Origin: Halorarum halobium
GTDB taxonomy: Archaea; Halobacteriota; Halobacteria; Halobacteriales; Haloferacaceae
Reading direction: 5' to 3'
NCBI RefSeq assembly: GCF_032116555.1
Contig: NZ_CP134949.1
Span: 2,480,001-2,544,000 of the forward strand
DNA: 64,000 bases
This document shows, piece by piece, positions 1 to 12,000 of this stretch (the stretch's first letter is position 1; every line of letters starts with the position of its first letter). A program made the position numbers.

Positions 1-3000
1 GGGTGACCGGCGACCTGACGCCGACGATCGACCTGCTCCACGCCAGTGATCGGTACGACCTGGAGGTCCTGTTCGCCCCCCAGCACGGACTGCGTGGAAA
101 CGTTCAGGGGGAGCTCGATCGCTCGCGGTCGGTCGACGAGCGAACCGGCCTGCCCGTCCGGATCCTCTCGGATCAGAGCGAGGCCCGCATCCGCGAGTCC
201 TTCGCGGACGTCGACGTCCTGATCTACGACATGCAGGACATCGGCTGTCGGTTTTACACGCTCGTGAACACGCTCGCGATCGCGCTCAGGGAGGCTGCGG
301 CGACCGGGACGCGGCTCGTGATACTCGACCGACCGAACCCGATCGCGCCGGTGGCGCCGGAGGGCAACACCGTCCCCCCGTTCGGGACGCCCTCGCTCGA
401 CCGGTTCGACCTCCCGATCACACACGGCCTGACGGTGGGGGAACTCGCCCGCTACTTCAACGTCGAGTTCGACGTCGGGGGGGACCTCGAGGTCATCGGA
501 CTCGACGGCTGGGATCGGGACACGTGGTACGACGAAACCGACCTCCCGTGGGTCCACCCCTCCCCGAACATGCCGACGTTACAGACCGCGCTTCTGTATC
601 CGGGCACCTGTTTCTTCGAGAGCACGAACCTCTCGGAGGGGCGGGGGACGACCAAGCCCTTCGAACTCGTCGGCGCGCCGTGGATCGACGGCGAGGACTG
701 GGCGGCCACGCTGAACGACTACGACCTGTCGGGTGTCGCGTTCCGCCCCGCCCACTTCACCCCGATGTTCTCGAAGCACGAACGCAAGGACATCGAGGGC
801 GTCCAGGTGCACATCCTCGACAGGGACGAACTGGACCCCGTCGCGCTCGGGATCACGATGCTCGTTTCGACGTTCGACAGTCACGAGGAGTCGGAGTGGC
901 TCCCCTACAACGGGGGGTACTTCGTCGACAGGCTGGCCGGCGGGAGCTATCTCAGGAAGACGATCGACAACTCGGGAGACGGGGTGACTCCCGTCCACCT
1001 CGCGGAGGGGATCCGCGAGTACTGGTCGGACGACCTGGCGGCGTACATGGACGTGTATGACGAGTACCGGCTCTACTGATCGGGGTCCAGTCTCCCCGAG
1101 CGGCCGGGTGGTCTCCCCAGATATTACCAAACATTTATGATACAGGACTAATACGCCCTATCTGCGCAATGAGAACCAATCGCACGACCACCGGGACGAG
1201 CAGGCGTCGCCTCATTCGATCGGTCGGCGGGGCTGCCGTGGCGACCGCACTCGCCGGGTGTAGCTCCGACTCGGCGGGGACACCGACGACGAGCCCGGAC
1301 GACTCGGACGGGCAGACGAGCCCGTCGACGGACACGCAAGCCCAGGATTCCATCCCGACGGGCGGGACGCTGAACATCGCGACGGCGGGCGATCCACAGA
1401 ACCTCGACCCCCACACCACGACCATCAACGTCGCACAACTGGTGCTGTCGAACGTCGTGGAGGGGCTGTTCGAACTGGACGCCGACATGAACCTCACCGG
1501 CGTGCTGGCGACGGGCTATGAGGTCAGTGACGACAACCGGACGTACACCATCTCGCTCAAGGAGGGCGTCACGTTCCACACCGGGGCCGAGTTCACCTCG
1601 GCGGACGTCAGGTACTCCATCAATCGCATCCTCGACCCCGACGTCGGCTCGCCCCGTGCCGCGAACTTCTCGCTCCTCGAGTCGATCGAGACGCCCGACG
1701 ACTACACGGTCGTCTTCACGCTCTCGGAGCCGTTCGCGCCGTTCATGGTCAGCCTGACGGATACGGCGGCGATCATCCCCGAGGGGTCGGCCGAGGAACG
1801 AAACTTCCAGCAGGAGCCGGTCGGGACCGGCCAGTTCGTGCTCGACAGCTGGTCGACCGACGACAGCGTCGTCCTGCAGCGGTTCGACGACTACCACGTC
1901 GAGGACCAGCCGTACCTGGACACCTGCGAGTTCAACATCATCCCCGAGGCCGCCACGAGACAGACCCAGCTCCAGAGCGGTCCAGCAGAAGTCATGTTCG
2001 GCGTGCCGTTCCAGCAGGCCGGCGCCCTCGAGTCGGGGTCGTCGACGAACCTCCAGTCCACGTCGGGGCTCTGGAAGCAGGCGCTGTGGTTCAACACGGA
2101 CCGGGAGCCGCTCGGGGACGCCCGCGTTCGTCGGGCGATCAGTTACGCCGTCAACCGCCAGCAGCTCGTCCAGGGAGTCCTGTTCGGCCACGGCCAGGTC
2201 GCCAACTCGCCCGCGCCGCCGACGAGCGCCTGGCGTGACAGGATCGATAGCGGCCAGTCGTACGAGTACAGCCGGGAGCAGGCCAACTCGCTCCTGGACG
2301 AGGCCGGACTGGACCCGGGCTCGATCTCCCTGTCGGTCAAGGCGTCACGGACGCCGGGGACGACCTACGCGGACACGGCGACGCTCGTGCAGTCGCATCT
2401 CACCCAGCTCGGCATGGACGTCGACGTCGAGATCATGGACTTCTCGACGTGGCTCCAGGAGGCGTGGGTCGACAAGAACTACGACCTCTCGATCGGCTCG
2501 TGGTCGGGCCGGACCGACCCCGACGGCTGGTACTACCGGCAGTACCACAGCGAGGGCGCCTGGAACCGGTTCAACTACGCCAACGACGAGGTCGACCAGC
2601 TGCTTCAGGACGGCCGCACGACCGTCGACACGGACGAGCGGGCCGACATCTACAGTCAGGTCGACCGGATCGTCTCCGAGGAGCTCCCGATGACGTACCT
2701 GTACTTCCGTGAGGACATGACGGGGCTGACGCCGTCGGTCGGCGGCTACCAGCTGACCCCGACGTCCCAGGCGGAGTTCGGGACGACGTATCTCGAGCAG
2801 TGACGATGCACGTGGAGTCCCCGAACCGGTTCGAATCGCCGATTCGCTCCCCCCCGCTGACGCCCACATGAGAAAGTACGTCATCAGACGGCTCGCCCAG
2901 TACGTCCCCGTGCTGTTCGGCGTCTCGGTCATCTCGTTCAGCATGATGCATCTGGTCGCCGGCGGTCCGGTGCGGACGATGCTGGGGACGCAGGCGACCG

Positions 3001-9000: not shown

Positions 9001-12000
9001 CTGACCGCGGCATCGATCGACGCCGCCTATCGGGACTTCGCCGACCGGTATCCGGACGAGATCTACGTCTGTGGCGGCGGCGCGTCGAACCCGACGCTCC
9101 TCGAGTTCCTCCGGACGCGGACGGACGCGCCCGTCGCCCGACTGCAGGAGCTCGGCATGGATGCGGACGCGAAGGAGGCCGCGATGTTCGCGCTGTTCGC
9201 GGCGACGAACTGCTGGGGGGAGCCGAACAACGTCCCGTCCGCGACGGGCGCCGACGGCCCGGTCAGCATGGGGAAGGTCTCCCGGCCATGAGCGACCGCC
9301 TCGAGGGGCTCCTCCCCGACCCGGACGCGATCCCGGCGTCGGGTCCCGGTCCCGCGCTCGTCGTGTTCGACTTCGACGGCACGCTCGCCGAACAGCGCGG
9401 GAGCTGGGGCCTGCTCTACCGCCTGTTCGGCGTCGAACCCGACGGCGTGGACCGCACCGACGCCTACTGGGACGGCGACCTGTCGTTCCAGTCGTGGTGT
9501 GAGGGCAACGTCGCCGACTGGCGCGAGCGGGGCGTCACGGCTTCACACCTGCGACGCGCGGCCGAGGCGATCAAGCTCACGGAGGGGGCCGGTGACCTCC
9601 TGGAAACGCTCTCGGCGGGCGACGTGCCGTTCGGCGTCCTGAGCAGCGGCGTGCTCGATCTGATGGCGCGGATCGAGACGCACGACCCGGCCTTTATCGT
9701 GTCCAACGAGATCCTGTACGAGGACGGCGTCCCGGTGGACGTCAGGGCACACGTCGGCCCCGACGACAAGGGGGAGCTCCTCCGGCGGCTCTGTGCCGCG
9801 GTCGACGTCGATAGCGAGGACGTCGTCTACGTGGGCGACTCCCACTCCGACGTCGAGGCGTTCGAGGTCGCCGGCACCGCCGTGCTGTTCGACCCCGACG
9901 ATCGGATCGAGGAGGACCAGTACGACCTCGTCGACCACCTGCAGACGCGTCGGGACCTCGCGGAACTCGTCGACGTGATTCCCGTGCCCGGACCCCCGTC
10001 GTCCGGACACGAAACCTAGTTGGTGGCCCGCGCTCTCACCGTGCGTATGGAGGAAGTCAGTACGGATGAGGCTCCTGCGAGCATCGGGCCGTTCTCACAG
10101 GCGATTCGGGACGGGGACACCGTGTACGTCTCCGGACAGGGCCCGGTCGACCGGTCCGGGGAGATCGTCGGCGACGACGTCGCCGAACAGACGGCCCGGA
10201 CGCTGGAGAACGTCGACGCCGTCCTCCGGGCGGCCGGCGGGTCGCTGGACGACGTCGTCAAGGCGACCGTCTTCGTTCGGGACATGGACGCGTACGACGT
10301 CGTCAACGAGGTGTACGCCGAGTCGTTCAGCCCCCCGTTCCCGGCCCGCAGCGCCGTCGAAGTCCGCGATCTCCCGATCGACATCGAGGTGGAGATCGAG
10401 GTGATCGCGAGCATCCCCGAGTGATCAGGGAGGCCCGGAGTCGGGTTCGACCGAACACGAGCGGCTACCGATTCCGCTCGTGAACCGTGCGTAGCAACTC
10501 CTCGAGTTCCGTCCGGACCGCCTCGAACATCTCGGCGCCCTTCTCACGGTCAGCCAGGGCCGGGTCGCCGATCGCGCCGGAGTCGGAGTAGGCGTCGAAC
10601 CCACGGTAGACGGACACCGGACCGCCGACGAGCAGGTCCTGTCGCCCCCCTTCGTACGGCTCGTCCAGGTACGTTCCGTCGGCGAGCTCCTCCCTGACGA
10701 GGTCGGGAAACAGGTGGAGCATCAGCGACGTTTCGAACTCCCCGCCGTGAGCCATCCCGCCGGGGTCGCTGTCCCGGAGCTCGGTGATCGCCTCAGTCGC
10801 CAGTTCGAAGTACGTCACCCCGAGCACCTCCGCCGACTCGTTCGCCCGTCCGACCGTGTTCACCACCGTGGAAACGAGCGAGGTGTTCCCGCCGTGCCCG
10901 TTGATCAGCACCATCGCGTCGAACCCGTTGTCGAGCGCGGAGGTGCTGAGCTCCTCGAGAAGCGCGTGTGCCGTCTCGAACTCGGCCGTCATGGTCCCGC
11001 CGAACGGGAGGTGGTGAGACGAGAGGCCGCTCCACACCGTCGGCGTCACGAGGAGCGGAACCTCGTCGACGAGCCGGTCGGCCGTCCGGTTCGATACCTC
11101 CCCGGCGAGGAGACTGTCGGTGCCCACCGGGAGGTGGTCGCCGTGCTGTTCGACGCTCCCGAGCGGGACGACGAGAATCGATCCCTCCCGCCCGGCGATT
11201 TCACGGATCTCCGAGGCGGTGCGTGTCAGCCACGCCGCGTCGCCGCCGGTCAGCAAGCTCTGAACCATGTGGCTCGATGGGAACCCCGCACCAAAGTTCC
11301 ACGGGACTCCGGCACTGGAGCGGAGGTCACCGGTCGACCGAACTCGGACGGGTGACGTACGGTAAACGAGATTGGAAGTGGGACGATATACAACTATCCT
11401 TATATTAATTCAAGTAAGTTTTTCACTACCTTCGAGAGCACGGGTGATAGTAGCCCATATGACGATGGTAGTCCGAAAAGAATGGGAGTATTCCCAGTAC
11501 CGGCGTGTAATTAACGATGAATGAGTAAACTCGACTCCAGTCCGACGGCGGGAGGCGAGCTGGGCCGAAACCCGGCGAGTGCGTGCGAGCAACCTCTTCT
11601 GACCGTAATACCCGGTTCATCCGCGTTTTTGGACTGAGGGATGCGACGTTTCGTCCGGCTCCCGATCGCGGTCCCGAACCGGGGACTGGAAAGAACCATC
11701 ACTATTCGATGTATTCTGTGAAAGGAGAGCGTCACGGAACGAGCGGTCAGTCCCTGCCGCCGGCACACGCGGTGCGGTCGTCTCGCTCCCCTCGCGGTAG
11801 CGGCGCGGAGGCTCGTGACCGCTCCGCTCGCGGACTCACTGTCTCAGGCGTGAACGCTCCCCGACGAACCGTGAACGGTTCCCGCCCCCCGAACGTCGTC
11901 CCGGACGCTCAGAGGGTCGGCAGGAACAGCGCGATCGAGGGGAAGAAGACGATGAGCAGGATGACGAGGAGGATCGGGACGTAGAAGGGGATGACCGCGC

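Follow-up and report, generated by a model that had tools for sequence, protein, structure and literature searches.

Organization of the locus

We identified in Halorarum halobium (contig NZ_CP134949.1) a gene cluster spanning contig positions 2474062 to 2491268, of which positions 1..11268 lie within the window, the 64,000-nucleotide stretch of DNA analysed here (window position 1 is contig position 2,480,001; coordinates below are window positions unless marked as contig). The window part opens with a homologue of the exo-beta-N-acetylmuramidase NamZ (GH171; 1..1079, plus strand), which starts 87 bases before the window at contig 2479913 and carries the Pfam domains NamZ_N and NamZ_C. On the same strand follow a family-5 ABC solute-binding protein (1169..2803; Pfam SBP_bac_5), the Dpp/Opp permeases B (2868..3812) and C (3816..4721) and ATPases D (4724..5956) and F (5953..7038), an AmiE/YfeW-like serine hydrolase (7038..8111; Pfam Beta-lactamase) predicted to be a muramoyl-L-alanine amidase, the anhydro-N-acetylmuramic acid kinase AnmK (8104..9291), a HAD-IB phosphatase (9288..10019; TIGR01488, 51.6 above a cut-off of 45) that may be an analogue of MupP, converting MurNAc-6P to MurNAc, and a Rid family enamine/imine deaminase (10047..10424; TIGR00004, 145 above 106). 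A creatininase-fold amidohydrolase (10465..11268; Pfam Creatininase), a putative de-N-acetylase of an unsaturated aldonate, lies on the minus strand. Five further genes lie upstream of the window and encode an NlpC/P60 protein, an SDR (contig 2475517-2476338), an IclR protein, an enolase-family enzyme and the TIM-barrel protein g02502.

Every gene listed in the first-pass annotation was re-found with its coordinates and family, but the list was not complete, since the SDR, a core gene, was missing from it. The host-like GC content also held (0.676 for the locus, 0.682 for the contig); GC3 is 0.83-0.92 and the encoded proteins are acidic across the locus. None of the 16 reading frames is broken, most of them follow one another closely, and the 12 measured have host-like codon use. 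The region is not the single operon that had been described, as the NlpC gene is divergent, the creatininase gene convergent, and a gap of 315 bp separates the SDR and IclR genes.

A bacterial-type front end without MurQ or NagA

The kinase scores 428.1 bits against the AnmK model NF007148 (cut-off 387). As previously noted, AnmK is encoded by 29 of the 401 Halobacteriales genomes that were sampled. One family supplies 18 of them (18 of its 35 genomes), and in the host's own family 1 of 69 other genomes has it; because 18 of the 29 come from a single family, co-occurrence counts among them are not independent. The haloarchaeal AnmK loci are often found on plasmid records. The absence of the usual downstream enzymes from this genome was likewise borne out, with best scores of 28 bits for MurQ (cut-off 302) and 22 bits for NagA (cut-off 226), and a real MurQ protein used as a tblastn query gave no match in it at E<1e-5. 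Among the 28 other AnmK genomes neither MurQ (0/28, best 37 bits) nor NagA (0/28) exceeded its cut-off.

NamZ was found in 31 of the 401 genomes, among them all 29 with AnmK. In addition, the closest bacterial AnmKs, including plasmid homologues, sit in murQ loci, and among 42 metagenomic AnmK loci of at least 7 kb that do not look haloarchaeal, 26 contain MurQ and 22 an AmiE-like gene, with enolase, TIM, creatininase and Rid genes in none of the 42. The front end of the locus (Dpp-type importer, AmiE-like amidase, NamZ and AnmK) matches bacterial murQ loci.

The solute-binding protein begins with twin-arginine and lipobox-like features, as read from its sequence, and reaches no cut-off among the NCBIfam equivalogs. 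The best NCBIfam match of the AmiE-like hydrolase is PBP4B (75.8, cut-off 385). This protein is 34% identical to the product of an anmK-adjacent Thermomicrobium gene, both having the motifs SLTK, YSD and HTGFTG, and its likeness to AmiE is judged from class-C serine hydrolase motifs and anmK adjacency rather than from alignment to B. subtilis AmiE itself.

The NlpC/P60 protein combines SH3 and NlpC/P60 domains with a Cys-His-His site and no signal peptide, the features of the YkfC type; we take the structures 3pvq, 3h41 and 3npf to be YkfC orthologues. An NlpC/P60 gene is present in 22 of the 29 AnmK genomes and in 22 of the 372 others, and in three of six such loci inspected it adjoins a DAP decarboxylase. 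YkfB-like epimerases are separate genes adjoining NlpC in genomes G300 and G342, and in H. halobium the YkfB-like epimerase is broken (contig about 2146100-2146900). Neither Amidase_2 nor M23 hydrolases were found above cut-off in this genome, and the strain would therefore rely on fragments made by others.

A portable, putatively oxidative module

We defined as core loci the 19 of 22 haloarchaeal AnmK neighbourhoods that also hold the TIM-barrel and NamZ genes. Among these, the enolase-family gene is present in 18, a HAD gene (HAD-IB or HAD-IA) in 17, creatininase and Rid in 16 each, AmiE-like and GH3 genes in 14 each, and NlpC in only three; the three loci that lack both creatininase and Rid include two on short stretches. 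The SDR occurs in 13 core loci and an LLM protein, most similar to F420-dependent glucose-6-phosphate dehydrogenases, in the other six. The two never occur together and jointly cover all 19, which is the pattern expected if oxidation at C1 is required. Of the eight AnmK-less modules, by comparison, one has a HAD gene, although this contrast sets 40-kb against 20-kb regions; the loci of G333 and G149, both of the LLM type, have no HAD gene within 20 kb.

The SDR, TIM barrel, enolase, creatininase and Rid genes are a portable module. For example, they occur without AnmK or NamZ on pHV4 of Haloferax volcanii, adjoining a sugar ABC system and eda (KDPG aldolase). Across 34 TIM-centred regions without AnmK and NamZ, the module is present in eight, and six others have a DgaE-like lyase and a deacylase instead, an alternative mirroring the proven GlcNAc1A-to-KDG route in which, as reported in PMC9537276, the RidA gene is essential. 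The AnmK-linked enolase, SDR and creatininase sequences cluster apart from the AnmK-less copies, which may be due to common ancestry of the locus and not to a change of substrate. The metal-ligand motifs of the creatininase-fold protein align with those of 3a6g. This genome also encodes a KDG kinase (NF041332, 535 above 440) and a KDPG aldolase (TIGR01182, 200 above 156).

The enolase-family enzyme had been annotated as a dipeptide epimerase, a role that its catalytic motifs do not fit. Epimerases carry a Lys on strand 6 and a DxD on strand 8, while the glucarate-dehydratase-type subgroup has KxK, Asp/Glu/Asn metal ligands and a His-Asp pair. The protein has VVDM and PPDS where the G342 epimerase beside NlpC has INVKLAK and DLDG, and a His299/Asp272 pair with Asn248 in place of the Lys/Lys and DxD of that enzyme. 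It scores 69 bits against the epimerase profile NF041118, compared with 265-272 for the NlpC-adjacent epimerases. The KxK, Asp/Glu/Asn and His-Asp residues are conserved without exception across the 14 sequences aligned, and 2oqh has the same pattern. Judged by these residues, the enzyme very probably belongs to the sugar arm of the locus and not to the peptide arm. It is not a glucarate dehydratase proper (TIGR03247, 66.9 against a cut-off of 828.7), and the nearest solved structures carry no assigned function. To our knowledge, no enolase-superfamily enzyme cleaves a lactyl ether.

The TIM-barrel protein g02502 had been described as exclusive to haloarchaea, but 1665 clusters match it at E<=0.001, with bacterial members from Rhizobium, Alicyclobacillus, Bacillota and Armatimonadota. 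No Pfam family, GHL10 (PF02638) included, matches at E<=0.001, and in the Atlas the nearest named clusters lie at 0.89-0.90 with 143-158 shared features. Cwp19 heads the fold comparison (Z 25.7, rmsd 3.0, 285 aligned residues, 12% identity), followed by matches at 23.3 and 23.0, and Foldseek gives a TM of 0.58 with Cwp19 and 0.53-0.60 with beta-amylases. A Cwp19-like role in peptidoglycan degradation, as first suggested, is unlikely because the gene also occurs in loci without peptidoglycan genes; some of the loci that hold it feature heparinase-like, GH20 and sulfatase genes. The AnmK-linked copies form no clade of their own.

A proposed route for MurNAc and its alternatives

It appears that some salt-loving archaea without a bacterial-type wall carry a cluster for importing bacterial wall fragments, and that they probably burn the MurNAc by a chemical route so far undescribed. 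The headline of the first-pass annotation, a muropeptide utilisation locus without MurQ and NagA in a murein-less archaeon, stands on the NamZ-AnmK linkage (29/29), the murQ context of bacterial AnmKs and the missing MurQ and NagA (0/29), while part of its gene roles does not. That annotation had named no specific substitute for the MurQ step, and the genes surrounding AnmK point to an oxidative one. On balance, the gene content slightly favors a chimeric peptidoglycan-fragment locus, in which a bacterial-type front end would be joined to a haloarchaeal oxidative back end in place of MurQ, NagA and NagB.

In the scheme we propose, families, motifs, linkage and absences are observed directly, whereas all of the substrates and the sequence of reactions are inferred from them. 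The Dpp-type ABC system would bring small muropeptides into the cytoplasm, where the AmiE-like enzyme would remove the stem peptide, to be trimmed further by the YkfC-like peptidase. NamZ would free MurNAc, AnmK would convert anhydro-MurNAc to MurNAc-6P, and the HAD enzyme would take off the phosphate. The SDR would then oxidize C1 to give a lactone, which may open to N-acetylmuramonate spontaneously or through g02502, the weakest step of the scheme. The enolase-family enzyme could abstract the C2 proton beside the new carboxylate, so that the lactyl group at C3 is lost by beta-elimination. Subsequently, the creatininase-fold enzyme would remove the acetyl group and Rid would hydrolyze the enamine, releasing ammonia and 2-keto-3-deoxygluconate (KDG), with KDG entering the Entner-Doudoroff pathway via the KDG kinase and KDPG aldolase encoded elsewhere in the genome. 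It is conceivable, if somewhat short of an even chance, that haloarchaea grafted bacterial muropeptide uptake onto a native oxidative amino-sugar module, creating a third MurNAc route beside MurQ catabolism and AmgK/MurU salvage, in which an enolase-superfamily lactyl-ether lyase acts on N-acetylmuramonate to yield KDG, D-lactate, acetate and ammonia. If so, the same module in H. volcanii would represent a pathway for N-acetylhexosamines that has not been described, and a function could be given to a large TIM-barrel family that so far has no name.

Peptidoglycan use could also be right and the MurQ-free chemistry different, with de-N-acetylation first, direct oxidation of the phosphorylated sugar, or removal of the lactyl group by g02502 or another enzyme, the enolase only dehydrating N-acetylglucosaminate. 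The enolase module does occur in loci without MurNAc genes, where water alone would leave, the LLM protein resembles dehydrogenases of a phosphorylated sugar and both HAD-less loci are of its type, and g02502 carries no assigned chemistry. However, no lactyl ether is expected in the heparinase-like, GH20 and sulfatase loci that hold g02502, whose AnmK-linked copies do not stand apart, and the DgaE-like gene found in 15 of 19 core loci could serve GlcNAc, leaving the enolase route for MurNAc. We consider this alternative rather unlikely.

In a reading that overlaps with the chimeric locus we prefer, the family-wide system is real and the copy in this genome is decaying, no longer acting on peptidoglycan glycan and at most salvaging free anhMurNAc or small muramyl peptides. 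The NamZ of this genome has both domains and no signal peptide, but carries Gln57 (CAG, window 81-83) at the putative catalytic Glu position at the tip of strand 2, which is equated with B. subtilis Glu92 through the published description and PDB alignments rather than a direct alignment. The Glu is kept in 22 of 24 haloarchaeal copies. With this substitution the locus copy may be impaired, and the broken YkfB-like epimerase and the lack of a NagZ-type GH3 gene in the locus (which holds no PIG-L or DgaE gene either) fit decay. Against it, the reading frames are intact and their codon use host-like, and G313, of the same locus subtype, has another substitution at this site, so that the two NamZ changes may mark a changed role rather than decay. 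We regard such decay as unlikely.

A quite improbable alternative is that the cluster is there for GlcNAc oligomers, from chitin or otherwise, that the substrate of AnmK is a different 1,6-anhydro sugar (anhydro-GlcNAc or levoglucosan), and that the peptidoglycan genes are passengers. The core loci include GH18 chitinase (8/19), hence chitin sugars also feed these clusters, and the GH3, PIG-L (14/19) and DgaE-like genes agree with a GlcNAc route that has been predicted for Natrarchaeobius (PMC12343721). Among PDB entries AnmK is nearer to levoglucosan kinase (E 4.5e-74) than to the Pseudomonas-type AnmK 3qbw (2.7e-52), and the NamZ Glu is lost in 2 of 24 copies. On the other hand, NamZ accompanies AnmK in every AnmK genome and mostly keeps its Glu, Tannerella NamZ enzymes are described as requiring a free lactyl carboxylate (bioRxiv 2021.12.02.470905), Amidase_2 (3 loci) and GHL10 (5 loci) join the cluster, and the nearest bacterial AnmKs have murQ neighbors. 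That the locus turns over the archaeon's own wall glycan with a muramic-acid-like sugar would suit its concentration in one family, but is very improbable given its patchy, often plasmid-borne occurrence, its link to importer and catabolic genes, and MurA and MurC scores below their cut-offs in this genome.

Comparison with known systems

The B. subtilis murQ-murR-murP-amiE-nagZ-namZ operon (PMC8054146) and bacterial anmK-murQ loci have in common with the chimeric locus proposed here the AmiE-like, NamZ and AnmK genes, often with a NagZ-like GH3 and a family-5 importer, and the adjacency of serine hydrolase and anmK is also seen in Thermomicrobium. In contrast to these systems, MurQ, NagA and any match to a BadF-type kinase are missing from this genome and a PTS gene from the locus, the hydrolases have no signal peptides, and the host makes no murein. 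The anabolic route of Pseudomonas (AnmK-MupP-AmgK-MurU; PMC5371407) likewise places a HAD phosphatase after AnmK without MurQ, but here there is no murein synthesis to supply and the neighboring genes are catabolic.

Peptidoglycan hydrolases secreted by archaea (Strock et al. 2025, PMC12352652) bring haloarchaea into contact with the bacterial wall, and that study raises scavenging as a question and reports Opp/MppA enrichment. Its enzymes are extracellular killing enzymes; the available text describes no intracellular MurNAc route, and AnmK, NamZ and MurQ were not found in its supplements, file 13 aside. The Natrarchaeobius route (CE14, Gdh, DgaE-like; PMC12343721) would likewise take amino sugars oxidatively to KDPG, also in haloarchaea, and its genes occur in the larger clusters. 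It is a prediction for chitin, and the available text lists GH171 in two genomes without discussing MurNAc, AnmK or this module.

In Pseudoalteromonas, the Ong pathway (GlcNAc1A to GlcN1A to KDG; PMC9537276) likewise yields KDG, ammonia and acetate from an N-acetylamino aldonate, with a D-aminoacylase and a PLP deaminase acting alongside the essential RidA. Haloarchaeal stand-ins for the OngB/OngC enzymes (taken from L082, not OngB/OngC themselves) gave no tblastn match in this genome at E<1e-15. Unlike the Ong pathway, the proposed haloarchaeal route would eliminate before deacetylating and must also shed lactate.

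Organization and origin of the locus

We found 16 intact genes in the locus, whose part upstream of the window was also read from the genome. In order, these encode an NlpC/P60 protein with SH3 domain (positions 2474062-2475039 of contig NZ_CP134949.1, minus strand; best PDB matches 3pvq, 3h41 and 3npf), an SDR dehydrogenase (2475517-2476338, plus strand), an IclR regulator (2476654-2477418, plus strand), an enolase-family enzyme (2477539-2478657, plus strand), the TIM-barrel protein g02502, which has no Pfam or NCBIfam match (2478654-2479817, plus strand), NamZ, five Dpp/Opp importer components, a serine hydrolase, the kinase AnmK, a HAD phosphatase, Rid and a creatininase-fold protein, the gene for the last being convergent to the rest. 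The SDR gene was missing from the gene list of the first-pass annotation. From the enolase to Rid all genes share one orientation, and most overlap or abut. Recent transfer or contamination is ruled out by GC content (0.676 for the locus vs 0.682 for the contig), GC3 and protein acidity. Since the haloarchaeal AnmKs cluster together weakly in our tree (support 0.59-0.77), we name no donor for this gene. The locus is followed by a TRAP transporter (DctM by Pfam), an iron-containing alcohol dehydrogenase, a second IclR and a probable acyl-CoA ligase (window positions 11909-15022, minus strand, and 14911-19655, plus strand), which probably form a separate unit because they are not conserved beside anmK in relatives.

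Distribution and conservation in Halobacteriales

Of the 401 Halobacteriales genomes sampled, 29 encode AnmK; they are not independent, as 18 come from one family. NamZ occurs in 31, including all 29 with AnmK; of the remaining two, one is a genome that is 84% complete and the other a fragment at the end of a contig. Neither MurQ nor NagA scored above cut-off in any of the 29 AnmK genomes, using profiles that passed in 6 and 8, respectively, of 14 reference genomes. In addition, MurA and MurC do not pass cut-off in this genome. NlpC/P60 is present in 44 of the 401 genomes and in 22 of the 29. The locus is plasmid-borne in the cultured genera Haladaptatus, Halorussus and Natrononativus.

We compared 22 anmK neighbourhoods from 21 genomes, namely this one and 20 of the 28 others with AnmK, taking up to 20 kb per side. 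g02502 and NamZ accompany anmK in 19 of them (the core loci), the exceptions being one neighbourhood in genome G013 and two in G335. These 19 carry the enolase (18), HAD (17), creatininase (16), Rid (16), DgaE-like (15), AmiE-like (14), GH3 (14), PIG-L (14), GH18 (8), glucose dehydrogenase (8), GHL10 (5), Amidase_2 (3) and NlpC (3) genes. Thirteen have an SDR, and an F420-G6PDH-like enzyme takes its place in the remaining six; no locus has both. This genome forms a subtype with G313 and G342, marked by a different binding protein and by the lack of GH3 and PIG-L. On a Haladaptatus pallidirubidus plasmid (L078, 22455-23287), a locus of the same subtype retains only short binding-protein and anmK pieces, its importer block having apparently been deleted. 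A second protein without Pfam match (L044, 6143-7168) occurs in 12 of the 19 core loci and is absent from this genome.

Uptake and anhydro-sugar kinase genes

The closest bacterial plasmid AnmKs sit in murQ loci of Paenibacillus, Thermomicrobium and Priestia. The Paenibacillus locus also holds NamZ, PIG-L and GHL10, and that of Thermomicrobium has a serine hydrolase immediately 5' of anmK, plus nagA and a hexosaminidase. Metagenomic AnmK loci gave a similar picture: of 69, we set aside 25 shorter than 7 kb and two that looked haloarchaeal, and 26 of the remaining 42 carry MurQ, while none has the enolase, g02502, creatininase or Rid. Among solved structures the haloarchaeal AnmK matches levoglucosan kinase better than bacterial AnmKs, which would suit another anhydro sugar. 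Despite that score, we accept anhMurNAc as the probable substrate, mainly because the nearest bacterial AnmKs lie in murQ loci.

NamZ of this genome has Gln at the position that we take to correspond to the Glu proposed as catalytic in the Bacillus subtilis enzyme (PMC8054146). Amidase_2 and M23 hydrolases did not exceed cut-off in this genome, the only GH3 found there is distant and outside the locus, and the serine hydrolase has no PDB match at E<=1e-15. For the locus as it occurs across the family, we consider peptidoglycan utilisation likely.

The enolase-family enzyme and g02502

The enolase-family gene had been annotated as a dipeptide epimerase, a function ruled out by its catalytic motifs. 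Its residues (K165/K167, D195, E223, N248, D272 and H299), invariant in 14 aligned sequences, depart from the epimerase pattern and show that of the best PDB match, 2oqh/4dye, structures without assigned function. By the subgroup rule, we take this set to be of the acid-sugar dehydratase type. True epimerases (second Lys and DLDG) directly adjoin NlpC in genomes G300 and G342, and are also present in two of six other NlpC loci read, three of which have DAP decarboxylase. In this genome, a YkfB-like dipeptide epimerase gene is truncated and frameshifted (L250, contig positions about 2146100-2146900). Three haloarchaeal loci (L253, L254 and L257), in which DAP decarboxylase accompanies a YkfC-like peptidase, look like a stem-peptide utilisation unit; two of them add a probable D-aminoacylase and a dipeptide epimerase, and one an AmiE-like gene. 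This genome further carries a DgcN-like and DgcA-like pair (L248, contig positions 839725-841772; these are the best NCBIfam matches, and neither reaches its cut-off) that may handle D-glutamate derived from stem peptides.

The description of g02502 as restricted to haloarchaea does not hold, since its profile matches 1665 clusters, including Rhizobium plasmids, Alicyclobacillus, Bacillota and others. Within the order, 73 of 401 genomes encode a family member, and 44 of these lack AnmK. Seven residues are invariant across 48 relatives: two Tyr, three His, one Trp and one Glu. The fold is a glycosidase-type barrel for which Cwp19 tops the list by a small margin. A Cwp19-like role on peptidoglycan is not favoured by 50 bacterial loci of one subfamily, the one sampled by a genome-collection scan with a single bacterial query protein: none matches AnmK or NamZ and 28 have a creatininase, alongside sugar ABC transporters, a kinase and a phosphotriesterase-like gene. 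The Rhizobium homologue faces a deacylase, RidA and an amino-acid deaminase, and that of Alicyclobacillus comes after a creatininase and a KDGP aldolase. g02502 follows amino-sugar-acid catabolism rather than peptidoglycan. In Paenibacillus (L099) and Ktedonosporobacter (L108), g02502, creatininase and FGGY kinase genes adjoin GH18 and lie near an LPMO gene, respectively, hinting at chitin-derived amino sugars.

A portable back end

The SDR, g02502, enolase, creatininase and Rid genes make up a portable module. On pHV4 of Haloferax volcanii (L077, 8750-17295; HVO_RS03100-HVO_RS03140), a sugar operon groups creatininase, sugar ABC, g02502 homologue, enolase, SDR, RidA and eda, and this control genome gave no AnmK or NamZ signal. 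Natrinema gelatinilyticum and Haloprofundus salinisoli have like gene sets; these three records may overlap genomes counted in our other sets. HVO_A028x tags, mentioned in two papers, probably fall within the pHV4 region; PMC6801745, in the portion available, deals with a neighbouring cluster rather than the g02502/enolase module.

We then considered 34 g02502-centred 20-kb regions without AnmK/NamZ (40 less six that were NamZ-centred). Enolase, creatininase and SDR occur together in eight, and a DgaE-like lyase with PIG-L or D-aminoacylase in six; enolase (>=45% identity) and DgaE never share one of the 34, although the Natrinema gelatinilyticum locus seemingly has genes of both sets. The HAD gene is found in one of the eight AnmK-less modules, as against 17 of 19 AnmK loci. 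Trees were built from rows that have at least 80% coverage and no stop. In these, the enolases, SDRs and creatininases that are linked to AnmK/NamZ form groups apart from other copies, and linked g02502 copies are not set apart. PDB matches of the SDR were unspecific. A second module in this genome (L072 and L073, contig positions 332925-350786) comprises IclR, Rid, an MlrC-like metallopeptidase, a class III aminotransferase, creatininase (57%), a family-5 ABC transporter, an enolase paralogue (55%), an FAH hydrolase and a probable DHDPS-family aldolase.

Proposed route and implications

AnmK would yield MurNAc-6P, which the HAD enzyme would convert to MurNAc, the dephosphorylation carried out by Pseudomonas MupP (PMC5371407). 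Oxidation at C1 would make the carboxylate required by the enolase-family enzyme. Abstraction of the C2 proton by the latter would then expel the C3 lactyl group, breaking the same bond as MurQ. Amide hydrolysis would leave an enamine, the usual substrate of Rid, and then 2-keto-3-deoxygluconate (KDG); KDG kinase and KDPG aldolase are present in this genome. The precedent is the Ong pathway, which leads from GlcNAc1A to KDG and in which a RidA gene is essential (PMC9537276). The DgaE/PIG-L/Gdh genes of larger clusters could serve the GlcNAc half, a type of handling that is itself a prediction in Natrarchaeobius (PMC12343721). We give the full mechanism of MurNAc breakdown an even chance of being correct.

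In the literature covered, from which most subscription journals were absent, we saw neither the locus nor the route described, and a mention in a genome paper is thus conceivable. Nothing there joined haloarchaea, peptidoglycan and anhydro-N-acetylmuramic acid kinase, or N-acetylglucosaminate and dehydratase, and the accessible portion of PMC13260240 has no words beginning 'muram' or 'peptidoglycan'. GH171 is among the CAZymes listed for two Natrarchaeobius genomes in the available part of PMC12343721. Strock et al. 2025 (PMC12352652), in the sections available, ask whether peptidoglycan-cutting archaea also eat peptidoglycan and leave scavenging open; AnmK, NamZ, MurQ and 'anhydro' do not appear in their supplements, file 13 apart. 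The locus supplies candidate genes for eating peptidoglycan, and cultured genera carry it on plasmids, so growth and knockout tests can address this question. The related module in the model archaeon H. volcanii, where genetics is routine, offers a ready test bed. If the back end works as proposed, it would be a novel means of cleaving the muramic acid ether and would add a reaction to those of the enolase superfamily. Overall, the locus belongs to a known kind of system, and its end pathway is possibly new.
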